DNA of 63,887 bases, counting the filler, from Globobulimina sp. (lineage: Eukaryota): the NCBI GenBank assembly GCA_003354225.1. It is 45 parts of 45 records of this genome, joined end to end, with 100 filler letters (N's around TTAATTAATTAA, not from the genome) between each part and the next. Parts side by side here need not be neighbours in the genome. Positions count along the whole stretch, not along the records: positions 9,962 to 11,284 come from PIVH01018667.1; 44 more parts are not named here. The stretch is one strand, 5' to 3'. Positions within the stretch are counted from its first letter, which is position 1; each line of letters opens with the position of its first letter. This document shows, one piece after another, positions 1-58,303 of the stretch. The notes beneath the pieces are model-generated. The model ran no database searches and was not told the origin of the DNA. It saw nothing but the letters and a program-made list of their open reading frames with translations. The translations under genes and the position numbers were made by a program.

Positions 1-134
1 TTTTTGACTTGTGGGATAAAATATATGTAGTCATATGCATATGATCAAACCACCTTAGGCTAACTCGTATGATTTTTTGTGGTGATGACAGATGGCAGAT
101 GCATGCTAGAATATTTTTTCCCACAAGTCTAAAA
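1..134. repeat. Imperfect inverted repeat / foldback
   Basis: TTTTGACTTGTGGGATAAAATAT at the left end pairs with ATATTTTTTCCCACAAGTCTAAAA at ~111-134. Confidence 0.7.
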
Positions 135-183
135 TCGTGATAAAGTTTTTCTATACCTTTGACCGTGTGACCGCTTAACGGTA

Positions 184-445
184 CTATAATGTGTGACTAT
201 AATATGTGACTATAATGTATGACTATAATCTATGACTCCAAAATTCTCGGTTTTAAACGTCTCTATAATTCTCTGATTTATATCATGAGAAAATGTTTCT
301 ATAATTCTCAGATTTATTCCGTTAGAAAACGTTTCTGAAAATGTTCCTGGAAAACGTTTCTGAAAATATAATTCTCTGATTTATTTTGTGAGAAAACATT
401 TCTATAATTCTCTGATTTACTTGGTCAGAAAACATTTCTAGAATA
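184..445. repeat. Degenerate tandem repeats (13-nt GACTATAATRTRT units, then ~36-nt TTCTATAATTCTCTGATTTA...AGAAAAC units)
   Basis: Direct repeats read in the sequence. Confidence 0.8.
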
Positions 446-518
446 ATCGGATTTATTAATTAGCTAATCGACTGTGTAGTTTATAGTGTGAATTAGTTGA
501 AACTATGTTATTTAAAAT

Positions 519-560
519 CACTGAGCTTTCGGCTATCGTAAAGAAGCCATTGTCAAAGTG
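519..560 (-). ncRNA. Minimal type I hammerhead ribozyme-like motif (U3-A8 variant)
   Basis: CACT-TTGACAA-T-GGCT...AGCC-GAAA-GC-TC-AGTG; identical to 10844-10885 (+). Confidence 0.75.
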
Positions 561-831
561 TTTAATTGAAGACTGTTTAACAAAAACTGTCACAAAACAA
601 AATACTACAAACAATCAAAACAAAAACACAAATAAAAAGGAAAACAAACAAACGTGAAAAATTTAATAAGCAATATATAACACAAAAAAACTTATCAACA
701 AATTAAATAAAAACTAAAATATAAAAACAAAAATAACTTAATAAAAACAATGGCAATCAATTCAAATCTTCACACAACAATGATAAATGAAATAAAATAA
801 CTAAATTAATAATAAACAAATACGCCACTCT

Positions 832-1225
832 TCACAGCATCGACACGAACGGTTCGTACTTTTCGCCCGGTTTTAATTTTAATAACTCTCTCTTCTCCCA
901 CTCTCTCCACCTGCTTTCGAACGACTTTCGTGGTAATTTAAACTCTAATAAATTGGCGTTTAACTCTTTCATTGTCCTCTAATAACTTCGCAATATCTCC
1001 TACCTCTTCCACCATATTAAAATCCAAACTTAGATCCAAATTTGTCTCGTTTTCATGCGAAATAATTAAGCTTTCATCCAATTTCTGTATATTTAACTCA
1101 GTAATATCTATATTTAACACTGAGTTGTTTGGAGTAATATCTATATTTAACCTTTCAGTGCTCAAGCGTTGAATCATTAAGTATCCTGTCTGAATATTCC
1201 GCGTAGTATGCTGACACAGTGTCAT
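832..1225 (-). pseudogene. Frameshifted 3' end of a putative retroelement ORF, homologous to 9962-10407
   Basis: IISHENETNLDLSLDFN, then in another frame PRKSFESRWREWEKRELL...YEPFVSML* (stop 834-832). Confidence 0.7.
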
Positions 1226-1323
1226 AATCTATCAATAAACTATTATTAAGATATTTATGCATTCAGGTGTACGGAGGAATATTATTCGATACGACAAAAA
1301 ATGATTCAACAAAAAATTTTGAA

Positions 1324-7115: not shown

Positions 7116-7234
7116 TGTTTAGTATATCTGTTGGTAGCCCGGTATCGTTTTGCATGGTGTAATTTCGTGTGGATGGATCGAAAACAATTTTGTTTGTGTT
7201 GCCTCCGCCGTAGGAATTGGCTCCACCATAAATT
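7116..7234. repeat. 119-nt terminal direct repeat (identical to 8320-8438)
   Basis: Contig start and end match exactly. Confidence 0.95.
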
Positions 7235-7657: not shown

Positions 7658-7726
7658 TGTGATGATAGGGATTTGAACCAAAATCTTCTTTAATTAGATT
7701 AGATGCTTTCCTTAAGCTATCATCAC
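7658..7726 (-). ncRNA. tRNA-like element, degenerate copy
   Basis: GTGATGA/TCATCAC acceptor stem, TAGCTTAAGG A-box, GGTTCAAATCC B-box; aberrant anticodon arm. Confidence 0.6.
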
Positions 7727-7829: not shown

Positions 7830-8438
7830 ATTACATAATTGCCAGCGAAACAGTCAATTTTAATGGACCGAATACCGGCTCTTTCCACAGTTAATTCGGC
7901 GGTTAGAACACTGCAATTTTGTTCAGTGAGCGGGTCACATTTCCAAATGGTACGAACTATGTCAGTATCGGCCTCACCATTTTGACCACCGAACACAAAC
8001 AACGAACCGTTATAATATTCACACGCTGGCTCTTTTAACATGGATAAGGCGTCGTGTTGCGTTGCTGTGCATGTCTGTGGTGCCGCGTTGCTGAGTGAAC
8101 AGATTTGAATCACATTCAAACCGACAGAGTATAATGTGGCTGTGGCGTCGTCTATGCATAGTCCAGGACTGTATTGCATGGCGCTTTCGTCTAAATAGGC
8201 ATAGCTGGCAACAGTGTCATCAATCCTATTGAGACCGGAGATATTTGCGCTGTTTTGAGAGATGAAATATATGATATTGTCTGCGTTGGGCCCGATGATT
8301 TGGGCACTGCCACTCGATGTGTTTAGTATATCTGTTGGTAGCCCGGTATCGTTTTGCATGGTGTAATTTCGTGTGGATGGATCGAAAACAATTTTGTTTG
8401 TGTTGCCTCCGCCGTAGGAATTGGCTCCACCATAAATT
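7830..8438 (-). CDS. Kelch-like beta-propeller fragment (frame continues through the terminal repeat to ~7290)
   Basis: PACEYYNGSLFVFGGQ...IWKCDPLT...LTVERAG. Confidence 0.55.
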
Positions 8439-8538: not shown

Positions 8539-8616
8539 GCACTCAGAGCACGCAGAGCACTCAGAGCACGCAGAGCACTCAGAGCACGCAGAGCACTCAG
8601 AGCACGCAGAGCACTC
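8539..8616. repeat. 18-nt tandem repeat GCACTCAGAGCACGCAGA, ~4 copies
   Basis: Read directly. Confidence 0.95.
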
Positions 8617-8665
8617 AAAAATATTGTCTCTGGAAATTGTTTGGTCAGAAAGAAGTGGAAACACA

Positions 8666-9961: not shown

Positions 9962-10407
9962 TTCAGGCAACGTCAGCTTTAAGTACAGATTTATCAAAAA
10001 TTGAAGAAAATGAAGTCGCAGAGGATATAGATTGGGAAGCATTTATGAGAAACGATTTTATTCTGGATCTGAATGAGTCGAATCTGAATTCGACAATTTC
10101 TGATATTGAAAACGCGCAGTTATTGGAGCCAAATCTATTGAATTTGAATGCAAATCAAATTATTAATCATGAAAATGATACCAATTTAGATTTTGATATC
10201 ACTTTTAATAATATCACAAACCATGAGGAATTATTAGAGTTATTGGACGACGAATTAAATGAAATAAATAATACAATGGAAATTAGTTTCAGTATCGAGC
10301 CAGAACCACGTATACCATTCCAAACTAAATGGGAAAACTGGGAAAAAAGTGAATTATTAGAAGTGAGCGAGGATGGCGAGTACATACCCTTTGCGTCGAT
10401 GTTATGA
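9962..10407 (+). CDS. Acidic C-terminus of a putative retroelement ORF
   Basis: Homologous to 832-1225; followed by a T-rich tract and the hammerhead-like motif. Confidence 0.65.
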
Positions 10408-10843
10408 CATATTTGCAGTTTATTGTTGTTTTATTTGTTCATTTATAGGCGTTTAATTATGATTTATTTGGTTGGCGGTTCATTGTTGGGGGGGGAGGTT
10501 CGTTTGATTTTGTGTCTGTTTATAACAAAGTTTAGTGTAATTTCCTCCCCCTGGTGTGTTTGCTATGTCTTATTTATCATTGTCAAGTGTTACATTATAT
10601 GTTCATTGTTGTTTATCATTTATTTCAACGTTGGGTTTGGTTTTATACTTTATTTTATTTTTACTTTTTTGTTGAAATATCTATTTATTTAAAAAGAATC
10701 ACGTTTGTATATGATTCATTAGTGTCTATGTTTTGTGTTATTCATTTTACAAATATGTGACGTGTGATTATCTCTTTTGGTGTGTCTTCGTTTGAGTGTT
10801 GTAGTTTTTTGTGATTGAAAAATCAACTAACTTTCAATTAAAA

Positions 10844-10885
10844 CACTTTGACAATGGCTTCTTTACGATAGCCGAAAGCTCAGTG
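10844..10885 (+). ncRNA. Minimal type I hammerhead ribozyme-like motif (U3-A8 variant)
   Basis: Stem I CACT/AGTG, core TTGACAA, stem II GGCT/AGCC, GAAA, palindromic AGCT stem III, UC cleavage site at 10880-10881. Confidence 0.75.
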
Positions 10886-11384
10886 AATTCATTCGTTTTA
10901 AGATTCAACTAATTCACACTATAATCTTGTTTAAATTTCTTACAATATAATTTGTTTTAATATTATTGAGATATGATGTTTATTCGCCAGAGGATATGAA
11001 TGGTTTATCGAAGTCTGATAAGAAAGAGATTATACAACAAGCAAAGCAGAAACGATTAATTGATGGCTTTTATTTGTTTTGACCTATTTTTGCCCGATTT
11101 TATGTGTGATTCGTCGTGATTGCTTTGTGTGTGCTATTTTGGCTCATTGTGGTTATTTTGTGTGCGTTTGTGTTTATGTTTTGTTTATGCCATTATTTGT
11201 ATGTTGTTGTGACATTATTTGTAAGTTGTTATGTTGTGTTACTTATTATCATGACTCAATCTGTTGTTATTTTGTCCATAATGANNNNNNNNNNNNNNNN
11301 NNNNNNNNNNNNNNNNNNNNNNNNNNNNTTAATTAATTAANNNNNNNNNNNNNNNNNNNNNNNNNNNNNNNNNNNNNNNNNNNN

Positions 11385-12052: not shown

Positions 12053-12117
12053 TGTGATGATTGGGGTTTGAACCCAAATCTTCTTTAATAAGATGCTCTC
12101 CTTTGAGCTATCATCAC
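12053..12117 (-). ncRNA. tRNA-like element with shortened anticodon arm
   Basis: 7-bp acceptor stem, GCTC/GAGC D-stem, TTGGG-TTCAAAC-CCCAA T-arm; anticodon arm only TCTT-ATTA-AAGA. Confidence 0.7.
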
Positions 12118-57297: not shown

Positions 57298-58203
57298 TTA
57301 TTTAAATTTATGAATTGATAAAGTATTGGAACATTCACCAGCTCGTCCTGGATGAGAATAAGTGATTGTTTGCAAATCCCAACCTTTTTCTGCAAATGTT
57401 TGCTTGTTTTGAACAATAAAATCTTGAATAGAATCAATTGGATTTACAATTTGAAATTTAGTAAATGTAATATTTCTTTCTTGATTTAATAAATCAATAC
57501 AACGCATTATCTCAAATACAAAATCTTCATTTAAATGTATTGATGGCTTATATTTACTCCCTGGTCGATTAAAGATTGTAAATGAGACTAATTTTGGACA
57601 TAAGTCAATAAATAATGATATTTTCATGGTTTCTGTCTTTGAGGAGGACACAAATATTTGTTTAAATTTACCAAATCCATAAATATCACATTCCCAAACA
57701 TCATGATGATACTTAAAATGTTTATCAACATTGGCATAATTTATATTTATGTCTTTTTTCTTATTAATAAATTGATGAAATAATTGTGAAATATATTGAG
57801 GAATATCGGATATATATGGTTTCTCCAAATAAATATCTGCAATTTCACCATTTACTAATCTTAATAACGTATTTACGTCGCCTTTATTTGGTTTAATACC
57901 ATCCAATGGATATCCATTAAACATCTCATCCAAAATATTAATAACTTTTATTAAACGTTTAAAATTTTGTTTGGACGGAATATTTCGAATTGTATCAAAT
58001 GTTAAGTTTTGTAGTCCCCCAATAAATAATCGTTCATCTTCATTGGCAAACGAGGTCCAAAAAGTTGCATCCATAAAGACAGCCGAACTGTGAGTATTTT
58101 TTAAATCCAATACGATTCCTTCTGCGCCAAATATTGACCATGCAATGGTGAAATCTGTGGTTGTGGACAAAGGGCCGCATAATTTTATGGTAGTGCTATC
58201 AAA
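57298..58203 (-). CDS. R-S-E-type ADP-ribosyltransferase-like domain protein, C-terminal part
   Basis: GPLSTTT...A..F...G.VL...FANEDERLF. Confidence 0.55.
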   Translation of the reverse strand, partial: FDSTTIKLCGPLSTTTDFTIAWSIFGAEGIVLDLKNTHSSAVFMDATFWTSFANEDERLFIGGLQNLTFDTIRNIPSKQNFKRLIKVINILDEMFNGYPLDGIKPNKGDVNTLLRLVNGEIADIYLEKPYISDIPQYISQLFHQFINKKKDININYANVDKHFKYHHDVWECDIYGFGKFKQIFVSSSKTETMKISLFIDLCPKLVSFTIFNRPGSKYKPSIHLNEDFVFEIMRCIDLLNQERNITFTKFQIVNPIDSIQDFIVQNKQTFAEKGWDLQTITYSHPGRAGECSNTLSIHKFK

Positions 58204-58303
58204 NNNNNNNNNNNNNNNNNNNNNNNNNNNNNNNNNNNNNNNNNNNNTTAATTAATTAANNNNNNNNNNNNNNNNNNNNNNNNNNNNNNNNNNNNNNNNN
58301 NNN

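Follow-up and report, generated by a model that had tools for sequence, protein, structure and literature searches.

An invariant hammerhead-like motif and an A/C-rich tail at the 3' end of a multi-copy sequence family in Globobulimina sp.

Two contigs of the Globobulimina sp. assembly GCA_003354225.1 likely carry a hammerhead-type ribozyme motif, as judged from the order of its helices and core nucleotides. The motif is invariant and is present in many copies, and the similarity between copies ends a short distance 3' of it, at an A/C-rich block. In our judgement it is evenly balanced whether the 42-nt core is a minimal hammerhead ribozyme (min-HHR) of the type found in Penelope-like elements (PLEs), forming together with a spacer and the A/C-rich tail the conserved 3' module of a multi-copy unit. 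It is plausible that this unit is a retroelement.

The window, i.e., the whole stretch of DNA that was analysed (63,887 nt), is made up of 45 contigs of ∼1.3 kb each (1321–1323 nt), with spacers of 44 N, 12 nt and 44 N between them. Since these are separate contigs joined by spacers, the copies on contig 1 and contig 8 are physically unlinked. A search allowing up to three mismatches found the 42-mer twice in the window, both times as an exact match and once on each strand, and gave 0 matches in 100 dinucleotide shuffles. A 21-mer further downstream also has two exact occurrences in the window and none in the shuffles (Table 1). In an all-against-all blastn comparison of the window the first identity covers 46 nt (518–563 = 10841–10886, 100% identity). 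The initial annotation had described the two blocks as identical between two contigs, which is correct, and the longer block extends 4 nt beyond the 42 nt given there. Searches with the 42-mer, with a variant of it whose loop was left free and with a pattern of core plus tail each gave 0 matches in the viral_contigs, metagenome_contigs and genome_contigs collections.

On both contigs the blocks are located 3' of diverged paralogous ORFs and GT-rich spacers. Pairwise alignment of the contigs gave a mean column identity of 74% over the whole alignment, with the identical blocks included, and the divergence that had been noted between the blocks, in the UTRs and in the ORFs is real. It affects the 16–18 nt spacer between the blocks, the GT-rich regions (268 nt in contig 1 and 426 nt in contig 8) and the ORFs. 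Besides the blocks themselves, TTCAATT(A)AAA just 5' of the 46-nt block and AG.T just before the 21-mer are nearly conserved.

Table 1. Features of the two module-bearing contigs, in window positions.
Feature	Position	Strand	Basis or remark
Contig 1	1–1323	-	Carries one module copy
Contig 1, A/C-rich 21-nt block (481–501) with 12-nt extension ACTACACAGTCG (469–480)	469–501	-	Extension partly common to other copies
Contig 1, hammerhead-like motif, identical to the contig 8 copy	519–560	-	Sequence search, descriptor match
Contig 1, GT-rich region, sense strand	564–831	-	T 0.60, G 0.15, A 0.20, C 0.05
Contig 1, end of paralogous ORF, ...WREWEKRELL...YEPFVSML, TGA stop	832–1322	-	Read in three frames
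Contig 8	9962–11284	+	Carries one module copy
Contig 8, end of orphan ORF, last 147 codons and TGA	9964–10407	+	Translation; frame open to contig start
Contig 8, GT-rich, A/C-poor region from stop codon to module	10408–10833	+	T 0.50, G 0.19, A 0.21, C 0.10
Semi-conserved leader TTCAATTAAAA, includes ATTAAA	10834–10843	+	1-nt indel relative to contig 1 (alignment)
Contig 8, minimal type-I hammerhead-like motif	10844–10885	+	Sequence, descriptor match, fold
Variable spacer separating the two invariant blocks	10886–10903	+	Alignment; alternative letters and indels at 10887–10901 in run contigs
Contig 8, 21-nt block rich in A and C, invariant and without G; putative tail or 3' cis-signal	10904–10924	+	Sequence search, composition
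Contig 8, second GT-rich region, to contig end	11083–11284	+	Composition

The fold proposed in the initial annotation (CACU/AGUG, UUGACAA, an extra U, GGCU/AGCC, GAAA, AGCU and C) is literally present. In contig 8, helix I has 4 bp, with CACU (10844–10847) pairing with AGUG (10882–10885). The 5' core UUGACAA (10848–10854) corresponds to U3 U4 G5 A6 C7 A8 A9, where U3-A8 replaces C3-G8, and one extra unpaired nucleotide, U10855, is found between A9 and G10.1. Helix II is formed by GGCUUC (10856–10861) with GA(U)AGCC (10867–10868 and 10870–10873) and has 6 bp, closed by G10.1-C11.1, with U10869 bulged and a 5-nt loop (10862–10866); it is seen in both the MFE and the centroid folds. The 3' core G12 A13 A14 (10874–10876) continues as GAAA to A15.1 (A10877), which is the first nucleotide of the palindrome AGCU (A15.1 to U16.1, 10877–10880), and both helix III and loop 3 are missing. 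Position 17 is C10881 in contig 8 (H17, not G) and base 523 in contig 1. The predicted cut would lie between 10881 and 10882 in contig 8 and, in contig 1, on the minus strand between 523 and 522.

The MFE structure of the isolated 48-mer consists of helix I and helix II (-9.5 kcal/mol). A descriptor with the min-HHR traits, which was written after the sequence had been seen, matched both copies (2/2) and nothing else on either strand of the 45 contigs, and gave 0 matches in 300 dinucleotide-preserving shuffles of all contigs (59.5 kb, both strands). The Rfam hammerhead models gave no match, either at gathering thresholds in the whole window or at E-values up to 10 in 10780–10960. The missing helix III and the U3-A8 change would be expected to lower the Rfam hammerhead scores. 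A hammerhead search as suggested in the initial annotation thus recovers both copies when U3-A8 is written into the descriptor, but no Rfam model does so. The stability of the fold is unremarkable, with z-scores of -0.28 and -0.43 for 101-nt stretches. At gathering thresholds Rfam found only three tRNA-like matches in the whole window, and its matches in 10780–10960 at E-values up to 10 (mir-80, AaHKsRNA82, and Yar_2) were rejected as chance level. An alternative hairpin in the MFE fold of contig 8, AGUGAAUU with AAUUCAC, was also rejected, as a T at 10887 in contig 1 and in most run contigs breaks a pair.

Min-HHRs occur in the pseudo-LTRs of PLEs, where a U3-A8 variant, an unpaired nucleotide before helix II and a palindrome without loop 3 have been described (Cervera and de la Pena, 2014, PMC4209133). 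All three, and indeed every sequence trait given there for PLE min-HHRs, are found here, which supports the hammerhead reading more strongly than the initial annotation could, and the U3-A8 core itself has been published for PLEs of S. mansoni (PMC4209133). According to the same source, further common features are the type-I helix order, the lack of helix III and loop 3 with palindromic positions 15.2–16.2, the placing of the extra nucleotide between A9 and G10.1, the G10.1-C11.1 pair, a 4-bp helix I, a longer helix II in which a bulge is possible, and the presence of many copies per genome, mostly as single motifs (PMC4209133). Activity of min-HHRs in vitro is described there as low. Differences from the published elements are also seen. 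In animals, the min-HHRs of PLEs are reported to vary strongly within one genome unless the invasion is recent (PMC4209133), whereas here the motif is invariant and its flanks are old and diverged. The protist PLEs treated in that work have monomeric hammerheads with a large helix III instead of min-HHRs (PMC4209133), and no ORF for RT (reverse transcriptase) or EN is seen beside the module here. The host is a divergent, AT-rich and gene-dense eukaryote, in which a fragment of an E1 enzyme shows no more than 37% identity to any library entry.

Further copies were looked for in Logan contigs from three sequencing runs of one study (X1, X2, and X3), hereafter run contigs, which were compared over 10400–11284. 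The number of aligning contigs was 70 for X1, 5 for X2 and 2 for X3, with the X3 pieces falling outside the block. Summed word depth in X1 rises from 6.5 at 10640–10789 to 975.6 at 10850–10879 and is about 20–30 after that, and the depth in X2 is 127–128 vs. 0–5.7. The run contigs carry the block in many sequence contexts, and up to nine distinct X1 contigs share one alternative flank letter. Variants at ≥10% share are listed only at 10822–10840, the leader region, where indels are also found, and at 10887–10901; there are none within 10841–10886 among the run contigs. This invariant footprint agrees with the limits of the motif to within 1–3 nt. No variants are listed among the run contigs at 10902–10924 either. 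Since the block is found in many contexts and the variants only in the flanks and the inter-block spacer, a multi-copy family with an invariant core is supported, and the word family used in the initial annotation was well chosen. The look at stem covariation among the copies that it suggested speaks neither for nor against the helices: no covariation is found among variants at ≥10% share in the run contigs because the block is invariant, both helices and the 5-nt loop included. Invariance of the loop and of both helices is more than a ribozyme alone requires, and this counts against the hammerhead explanation.

The tail block (10902–10924) has a composition of A 0.43, C 0.22 and G 0.04. In contig 8 the family similarity stops at 10924 and is followed by AT-rich DNA. 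In contig 1 and in three run contigs (two from X1 and one from X2) it runs ∼12 nt further (ACTAC...) before AT-rich DNA is reached. The 21-nt block had been proposed as a second cis-signal, which is plausible for an invariant, A/C-rich block at the end of the family similarity, where the position and composition are observed and the signalling role would follow by analogy. The layout of the module, with a hammerhead-like motif, an A/C-rich block as putative tail and then AT-rich DNA, would fit with that of PLE 3' ends. PLE hammerheads are located close to the 3' end, with a tail of 30–40 bp after them, as described in PMC8557442.

The ORF upstream of the contig 8 module encodes a protein ending in ...WENWEKSELL...YIPFASML, and its counterpart in contig 1 is paralogous (tblastn E-value 1.3e-9). 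Since the contig 1 ORF can be read only across three frames, it has, on this reading, at least two frameshifts relative to contig 8. The module behind this frameshifted ORF is nevertheless intact, which is what decayed members of a mobile family would be expected to show. Over the last 34 codons the two ORFs encode the same residue at 17 positions (17/34), at 7 of these via different codons. By tblastn the remaining 43 contigs gave no further paralogue. Among 1.84 billion representatives, no relative of the 147-aa ORF end was found at an E-value of ≤0.001; it matches no Pfam family when the curated cut-off is applied (best sub-threshold E-value 0.52, 10.7 bits vs. a cut-off of 27), and the ESM Atlas gave no usable match. 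RT and GIY-YIG domains, for which the initial annotation had suggested looking upstream, are absent from the visible last 147 aa according to the same representative library and Pfam. Its proposal of a hammerhead-bearing retroelement family is supported for the motif and for the family, but neither RT nor GIY-YIG is visible for the retroelement part and the ORF end has 0 relatives. As far as it is visible, the unit is not a canonical PLE. The GT-rich regions of the two contigs can be aligned weakly (z 2.9), and a comparable GT skew is rare 3' of other long ORFs in the window.

In the mechanism that we propose, the unit would consist of a fast-evolving orphan ORF, a GU-rich region of 270–430 nt and the module, and it would be transcribed through the module, possibly as read-through of adjacent units. 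Without helix III a single copy would not be able to fold into an active core, and two copies might dimerise by pairing via AGCU to give a 4-bp intermolecular helix III (double hammerhead), where helix I might form in trans as well. Each U3-A8 core would then cut after C17 (C10881 in contig 8 and base 523 on the minus strand in contig 1), and a protein may assist in this. The A/C-rich tail would act as the second cis-signal and, by analogy with PLEs, as the start site of copying by reverse transcriptase. The similarity between copies would end at the tail, in AT-rich DNA, because reverse transcriptase is proposed to start copying there, and the unit would be mobile. The double-hammerhead dimer has a calculated energy of -16.9 kcal/mol vs. 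-21.0 kcal/mol for the unconstrained dimer MFE and -19.0 kcal/mol for two monomers. No second copy of the motif for a dimer in cis was found within either 1.3-kb contig by the search allowing up to three mismatches or with the descriptor.

A close parallel for this scheme is the Anolis carolinensis element PAc, a Poseidon PLE (Frangieh et al., 2024, PMC11167929). In PAc, reverse transcription is reported to initiate in an AC-rich stem-loop 3' of the hammerhead and to target AT-rich sites, with an AUG at the start of stem II; cleavage is described as dispensable for insertion, and no RNA ends were found at the cut site (PMC11167929). As in PAc, the hammerhead-like motif is located shortly 5' of the putative element 3' end, an A/C-rich segment follows at the place where copies end, and the flanking DNA is AT-rich (PMC11167929). 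The nucleotides A9-U-G10.1 also read AUG at the start of helix II, and C17 lies 27 nt from the A, compared with a cut ∼26 nt after the AUG in PAc (PMC11167929). In PAc, however, the RT-EN ORF begins at this AUG (PMC11167929), whereas the reading frame here is closed by a stop after five codons. The AC-rich RT start of PAc is located 111–118 bp past the AUG while the similarity here ends ∼70–82 nt past it, and the PAc core has C3-G8 (PMC11167929) instead of the U3-A8 found here.

The non-LTR retrozymes of animals resemble the motif in having a type-I hammerhead with an unstable helix III (PMC7229834; bioRxiv 10.64898/2026.07.22.740005). They are short tandem repeats that give circRNAs, and they are thought to be non-autonomous and dependent on the PLE machinery (PMC7229834; bioRxiv 10.64898/2026.07.22.740005). 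Unlike these short non-coding repeats (PMC7229834), the unit here is coding, its ORF having at least 147 codons, and it also includes a long GT-rich region. A non-LTR retrozyme was rejected as an identity for the unit, which carries an ORF and shows no tandem motif copy within 1.3 kb.

A somewhat unlikely alternative assigns the block not to a mobile element but to the 3' UTRs of a large host gene family that evolves fast, where it would be a conserved cis-element. With the 21-mer, it might then be recognised by its sequence to control the stability, localisation or 3'-end formation of the mRNAs, or provide the homology for gene conversion between family members, and its likeness to a hammerhead would be vestigial or used only as a processing site. 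The invariant 16-mer in the 3' UTRs of trypanosome VSG genes is a comparable case. The mammalian CLEC2 discontinuous hammerhead is likewise found in a 3' UTR behind a protein-coding ORF; its core is canonical, its helices are stable, it works within one molecule, and it does not form a high-copy family. Such a host role would fit with the position of the block, always 3' of a paralogous ORF and in the same orientation, with an ORF under coding constraint as judged from the shared residues in its last 34 codons, and with the ATTAAA just 5' of the block. Invariance that includes loop 2 points to sequence-specific recognition rather than to the fold alone, the fold is thermodynamically unremarkable, and no RT or EN is seen in the visible 147-aa ORF end. 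However, the 0/300 shuffles make it very unlikely that all min-HHR traits were matched by chance, and one of the two copies is perfectly kept behind a frameshifted ORF. The long GT-rich spacer also differs from the regions 3' of other genes in the window, and the change from family similarity to AT-rich DNA is abrupt, in the way expected of an insertion boundary.

It is very unlikely that the blocks are a signal at the DNA level, such as a DNA transposon terminus or a protein-recognised site of recombination or replication, with no function as RNA. Two short blocks that are invariant at every position and separated by a variable spacer do look like a bipartite protein-binding site, and the similarity stops a few bases past the second block. 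On the other hand, neither block has an inverted partner within the contigs or elsewhere in the window, the strand polarity relative to the ORF and the GT skew is identical in both copies, and the complete hammerhead core would be left without explanation. Highly improbable is a small RNA gene, e.g., for a spliced-leader RNA with a ∼40-nt exon ending in ...GCUCA and a GU donor at 10883, either multi-copy itself or serving as a target for site-specific insertion. High copy number and an invariant block of ∼46 nt would suit such a gene, as would the GU at 10883–10884 inside a helix with the 5' end and the variable sequence after it, but the invariant 21-mer has no Sm-type site (a U run flanked by purines), no Rfam family was matched, and the copies are not near-identical tandem units, each of them being located behind a diverged ORF and a GT-rich region. 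By eye, a SECIS element (both ORFs end in TGA; helix II has only 6 bp and no AUGA/GA quartet geometry), a histone-type stem-loop (the ORFs are not histones and the element is 300–450 nt from the stop) and a Helitron 3' end (the hairpin is ∼50 nt from the end of similarity and there is no CTRR terminus) were dismissed.

If the reading of the block as a PLE-type min-HHR module is correct, it would extend the dimer-type hammerhead without helix III beyond animals and would link the min-HHR motif to a protein-coding unit other than an RT/EN gene. The role of the hammerhead in PLEs is still described as unclear (PMC11167929, PMC8557442). This family could ease its dissection, and constrained parts (core, helices, loop 2, and tail) can be separated from unconstrained ones because the motif and the short tail have stayed fixed, whereas drift has affected the ORF, the spacer and the 16–18 nt between the blocks. 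A bolder and rather more doubtful version is that the copies belong to a new class of hammerhead-bearing mobile units in a deep-branching protist, with diverged orphan ORFs as cargo, an invariant 3' module consisting of a dimer-dependent U3-A8 min-HHR and an A/C-rich tail for priming, and RT supplied in trans from elsewhere. Such units would be coding, non-autonomous relatives of PLEs and the first min-HHR family outside animals, and recognition of its sequence by the trans-acting RT, and not catalysis alone, would then account for why the whole block is invariant. If a host gene family instead uses the module, many paralogues would share a 3'-UTR signal derived from a ribozyme, which would be a rare situation.

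The DNA 3' of the contig 8 module was also inspected. A short ORF at 10966–11079 was rejected as a truncated family member, as shuffles reach its scores in fractions of 0.16 and 0.41. The second GT-rich region, which runs to the end of contig 8, may be the start of a following unit, and within these 1.3-kb contigs it is the one hint of pseudo-LTRs, the partial tandem copies that flank the ORF in PLEs. It has a weak local alignment (z 2.6) to the stretch just 5' of the contig 1 module, and the X1 run contains an 86%-like paralogous contig to it.

The 42-nt block on contigs 1 and 8 occurs exactly twice in the window, as does the 21-nt block downstream of it; neither has a further match at three or fewer mismatches, and none was found in shuffled sequence. 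The two contigs are unlinked, with the element on the minus strand of contig 1 (1–1323) and on the plus strand of contig 8 (9962–11284). Pairwise alignment showed divergence everywhere else, in the 16–18 nt between the blocks, in the stop-to-block regions and in the upstream ORFs. The initial annotation, which had reported these identities amid diverged sequence, was correct and slightly understated the case: with blastn the first block grows to 46 identical bases (10841–10886), and a near-conserved TTCAATT(A)AAA lies directly upstream of it. Two copies in a 59.5-kb contig sample fit a family of many members.

The first block can be read as a minimal hammerhead ribozyme (min-HHR) of the type carried by Penelope-like elements (PLEs). 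These are described as consisting of the conserved nucleotides only, without helix III, and are expected to act as dimers (PMC4209133). Traits that emerge beyond the descriptor of that paper are an unpaired nucleotide between A9 and G10.1, a highly conserved G10.1–C11.1 pair, a palindromic 15.2–16.2, a short helix I (4–5 bp) and a long helix II that is bulged in Drosophila virilis; in Schistosoma PLEs the core covaries, with U3–A8 for C3–G8 in ≈1,300 hits (PMC4209133). All of these traits, including U3–A8, are present in the block.

Hammerhead reading of the 42-nt block as RNA
Feature	Sequence	Positions	Contig (strand)
Helix I, 5' strand	CACU	10844-10847	contig 8 (+)
Core U3 U4 G5 A6 C7 A8 A9	UUGACAA	10848-10854	contig 8 (+)
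Unpaired nucleotide	U	10855	contig 8 (+)
Helix II, 6 bp, one bulged U, 5-nt loop	GGCUUC-UUUAC-GA(U)AGCC	10856-10873	contig 8 (+)
G12 A13 A14	GAA	10874-10876	contig 8 (+)
A15.1 G15.2 C16.2 U16.1	AGCU	10877-10880	contig 8 (+)
C17	C	10881	contig 8 (+)
Helix I, 3' strand	AGUG	10882-10885	contig 8 (+)

We searched both strands of the 45 contigs with a descriptor (helix I of 4 bp, C3–G8 or U3–A8, zero or one extra nucleotide, a G–C-closed helix II of at least 4 bp with an interior of 3–30 nt, GAAA, paired 15.2–16.2, U16.1 and H17). It matched the two copies and no others, and gave no match in 300 dinucleotide-preserving shuffles of all contigs; as it was written with the sequence already seen, this result bounds chance and is not a fair p-value. 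It is very unlikely that one given conserved 46-mer would match all the min-HHR traits by chance. The minimum-energy fold of the isolated 48-mer is exactly helix I plus helix II. The hammerhead-like fold first proposed from the sequence is upheld by these results, and we consider a hammerhead origin of the motif likely. Catalytic activity in vivo is a more tentative proposition, with a chance of even at best.

Contigs of three public sequencing runs of one study (X1, X2, and X3) were placed on 10400–11284 at 80% likeness. For X1, 70 contigs were placed, and the summed word depth, which the tool itself warns is not a copy number, was 6.5 over 10640–10789, then 60.7, 388.7, 975.6, 353.4, and 185.3 in five bins over 10790–10939, and ≈20–30 thereafter. 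The five contigs placed for X2 gave depths of 128 and 127 over the block against 0–5.7 beside it. None of the X3 contigs covered the module. The tables of alternative letters are a separate line of evidence. A single alternative letter is found in up to nine different contigs at 10840 and in eight at 10895, and indels are numerous at 10824–10840 and 10892–10901, yet no alternative letter reaches a 10% share among the run contigs inside 10841–10886 or 10902–10924. The block therefore occurs amid many different flanking sequences and is unchanged in almost every case, which bears out its earlier assignment to a family. The first invariant footprint agrees with the limits of the hammerhead motif (10844–10885) within 1–3 nt, in keeping with the hammerhead reading. 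Loose ends of run contigs showed other copies preceded by other GT-rich sequences. Contig 8 diverges exactly at 10924; beyond this position three run contigs (two from X1, one from X2) continue with ACTAC... for ≈12 nt, like contig 1, before unrelated AT-rich DNA.

Several results speak against catalysis or a hammerhead. The Rfam hammerhead covariance models gave no match on the whole window, nor on a 181-nt stretch with E relaxed to 10, probably because helix III is absent and the core altered. Folds of 101 nt were no more stable than shuffles. A double hammerhead is feasible at −16.9 kcal/mol, compared with −21.0 for the unconstrained dimer optimum and −19.0 for two monomers, and no second copy for pairing is present within contig 1 or contig 8. 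In published work, min-HHR cleavage in vitro is poor and is seen only for dimers or after a helix III has been added (PMC4209133). Covariation among copies, which the initial annotation had proposed as a check, was absent from the run contigs, in which the helix II loop and the two helices are no less fixed than the core. Animal min-HHRs are described as highly variable within a genome except after recent invasion (PMC4209133), whereas the block here is invariant although its flanks are old. Catalysis alone does not account for invariance across the block, which implies either sequence-specific recognition of all of it or homogenisation.

In each contig the blocks follow an ORF of the same orientation, and the two ORFs are paralogous (tblastn E 1.3e-9, two pieces in different frames). 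The ORFs end in ...W.(N/E)WEK.ELL...Y.PF.SML with a TGA stop in both contigs. Over the last 34 codons the residue is the same in 17, seven of these by different codons, which marks this region as constrained at the protein level. The contig 1 copy has to be read in three frames and therefore contains at least two frameshifts, with a perfect module downstream. The 147-aa ORF end of contig 8 had no relatives among 1.84 billion representative proteins, no Pfam family and no usable Atlas match. From stop codon to block, the sequence (426 nt in contig 8, 268 nt in contig 1) is strongly skewed and GT-rich (T 0.50–0.60, C 0.05–0.10); the window's other long ORFs are rarely followed by sequence of such skew. 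A second GT-rich stretch in contig 8 begins 158 nt past the module and reaches the contig end; it aligns weakly with the part of contig 1 preceding the module (z 2.6). GT-rich sequence also occurs in contig 34 (46935–47100 and 47255–47404, minus strand) as short tandem units reading as ...VG..VG... peptides, similar in skew to the GT-rich region of the unit, with no sequence in common.

The layout of the module resembles the 3' end of a PLE. PLEs are described as carrying the hammerhead in a pseudo-LTR near the 3' end, often followed by a 30–40-bp "tail" (PMC8557442). In PAc, the Poseidon PLE of Anolis carolinensis, reverse transcription begins within the RNA in an AC-rich stem-loop downstream, two adjacent start sites account for the tail, and AT-rich DNA is targeted; the hammerhead appears protein-assisted, and insertion in vitro is described as proceeding without need for it (PMC11167929). 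Similarly, the invariant 21-mer lacks G altogether, and the tail block (10902–10924; A 0.43, C 0.22) contrasts sharply with the GT-rich region upstream, while likeness between copies stops at 10924 or ≈12 nt later and AT-rich sequence follows. In PAc an AUG stands at the start of stem II, with the cut site ≈26 nt after it (PMC11167929); in the block, A9-U-G10.1 likewise gives an AUG, and C17 is 27 nt from the A of that AUG. Here, however, the frame opened by the AUG reaches a stop after five codons, the tail shows no evident stem-loop, and the ORF end has no known relative and, in protein library and Pfam searches of its last 147 residues, no reverse transcriptase (RT) or GIY-YIG domain. Because of these differences we do not class the unit among the PLEs, and describe it as a putative PLE-type 3' module joined to an orphan ORF. 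For the retroelement family proposed from the sequence, the many copies support a family and the 3' layout fits; the expected RT and GIY-YIG are missing from that ORF end. The frameshifted contig 1 copy with its intact module fits a family spreading by copying; an archive of gene copies whose ends are kept alike by gene conversion would also fit. That the unit is a retroelement or a passenger of one is possible, at somewhat less than an even chance.

In the mechanism that we consider most likely, the unit would be transcribed through the module, and two modules, carried by one read-through transcript or by separate RNAs, would pair via AGCU and exchange their helix I strands, giving a double hammerhead. 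Each core would then cut after C17, possibly helped by protein, and the A/C-rich tail would act as a second signal, most plausibly in RT priming by an enzyme encoded elsewhere. The motif, its invariance, the many copies and the end of similarity are directly supported; the other steps we infer. Taken as a whole, the scheme could equally well be right or wrong.

A less probable but still substantial alternative is a 3'-UTR element shared within a multigene family of the host, serving stability, localisation, 3'-end formation or as a gene-conversion anchor. Invariance over the whole block, its constant association with an ORF under constraint and the ATTAAA close before it would suit such an element, but the hammerhead core is complete, the module is intact behind a broken ORF and the similarity ends abruptly. 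A signal acting at the DNA level, for instance a transposon end, is improbable, as the window contains no inverted partner. A small RNA gene, for instance for a spliced-leader RNA, is very improbable, with no Sm-like site, no Rfam match and copies that are not in uniform tandem units.

Minimal hammerheads, the U3–A8 variant and their link to PLEs are already published, and protist PLEs are described with monomeric hammerheads that have a large helix III (PMC4209133). What appears new is the host, a divergent, non-animal-looking eukaryote, together with a strictly invariant motif amid diverged flanks, a bipartite module with an invariant A/C-rich tail, and the joining of the motif to an orphan ORF and not to an RT/EN gene. 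No report of such a unit was found in the part of the literature covered. The unit offers a clean, testable case, limited so far by fragmentary sequence.

The window, 63,887 bases in all, comprises 45 separate contigs of 1321–1323 nt with artificial joins (44 N + 12 nt + 44 N). The contigs are AT-rich (GC 0.26–0.36) and contain 42 long uninterrupted standard-code ORFs of at least 170 aa, several with eukaryotic domains (ubiquitin E1, Kelch, PARP, XPG, ion channel). As the E1 fragment has at most 37% identity to any protein found, these features together point to a divergent, gene-dense eukaryote as the source.

Directly past the element end, contig 1 carries five copies of a 36-nt tandem repeat (228–475; 60–100% alike as 73-nt two-unit windows) and, beyond it, a short run of ...TATAGTCA... 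repeats. Contig 36 has a 439-aa frame open across the whole contig (49780–51096, plus strand) with no Pfam family at E up to 0.001. By eye, its C-terminal part looks like a retrotransposon Gag-type region; the likeness is unconfirmed and is the sole hint by eye of a retroelement protein in the window. The stretch ...PYGYVLVDL... in an ORF end of contig 32 (44093–44653, minus strand), which has no Pfam family, is reminiscent of Polinton/Maverick-type packaging ATPases.

A pair of related tRNA-like genes is found at 7658–7726 and 12053–12117, on contigs that are unlinked (both minus strand; Rfam tRNA 40.1 and 52.5 bits). The genes have 48 nt in common at 92% identity, each with GUGAUGA/UCAUCAC as acceptor stem and a T-run after the gene. 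Of the two, ARAGORN recognises just the former, with anticodon CUA ("Pyl"). By eye, the former has an apparent short duplication in the anticodon arm and the latter a 7-nt loop with UAA. Each of the three stop codons terminates long ORFs in the window, which gives no hint of stop reassignment. Contig 6 (1323 nt), which carries a 256-aa ORF and one tRNA-like gene, may be a circle or tandem unit of 1204 bp, since its first and last 119 nt (7116–7234 and 8320–8438) are 100% identical at a spacing of 1204 nt. The end of its ORF (...IIAWSIFGSQGVVLDIKN...) resembles a stretch of the contig 41 ORF (57298–58251, ...TIAWSIFGAEGIVLDLKN...). Finally, contig 7 starts with ≈10 copies of a 9-nt tandem repeat (8539–8628), in which GCACTCAGA alternates with GCACGCAGA.
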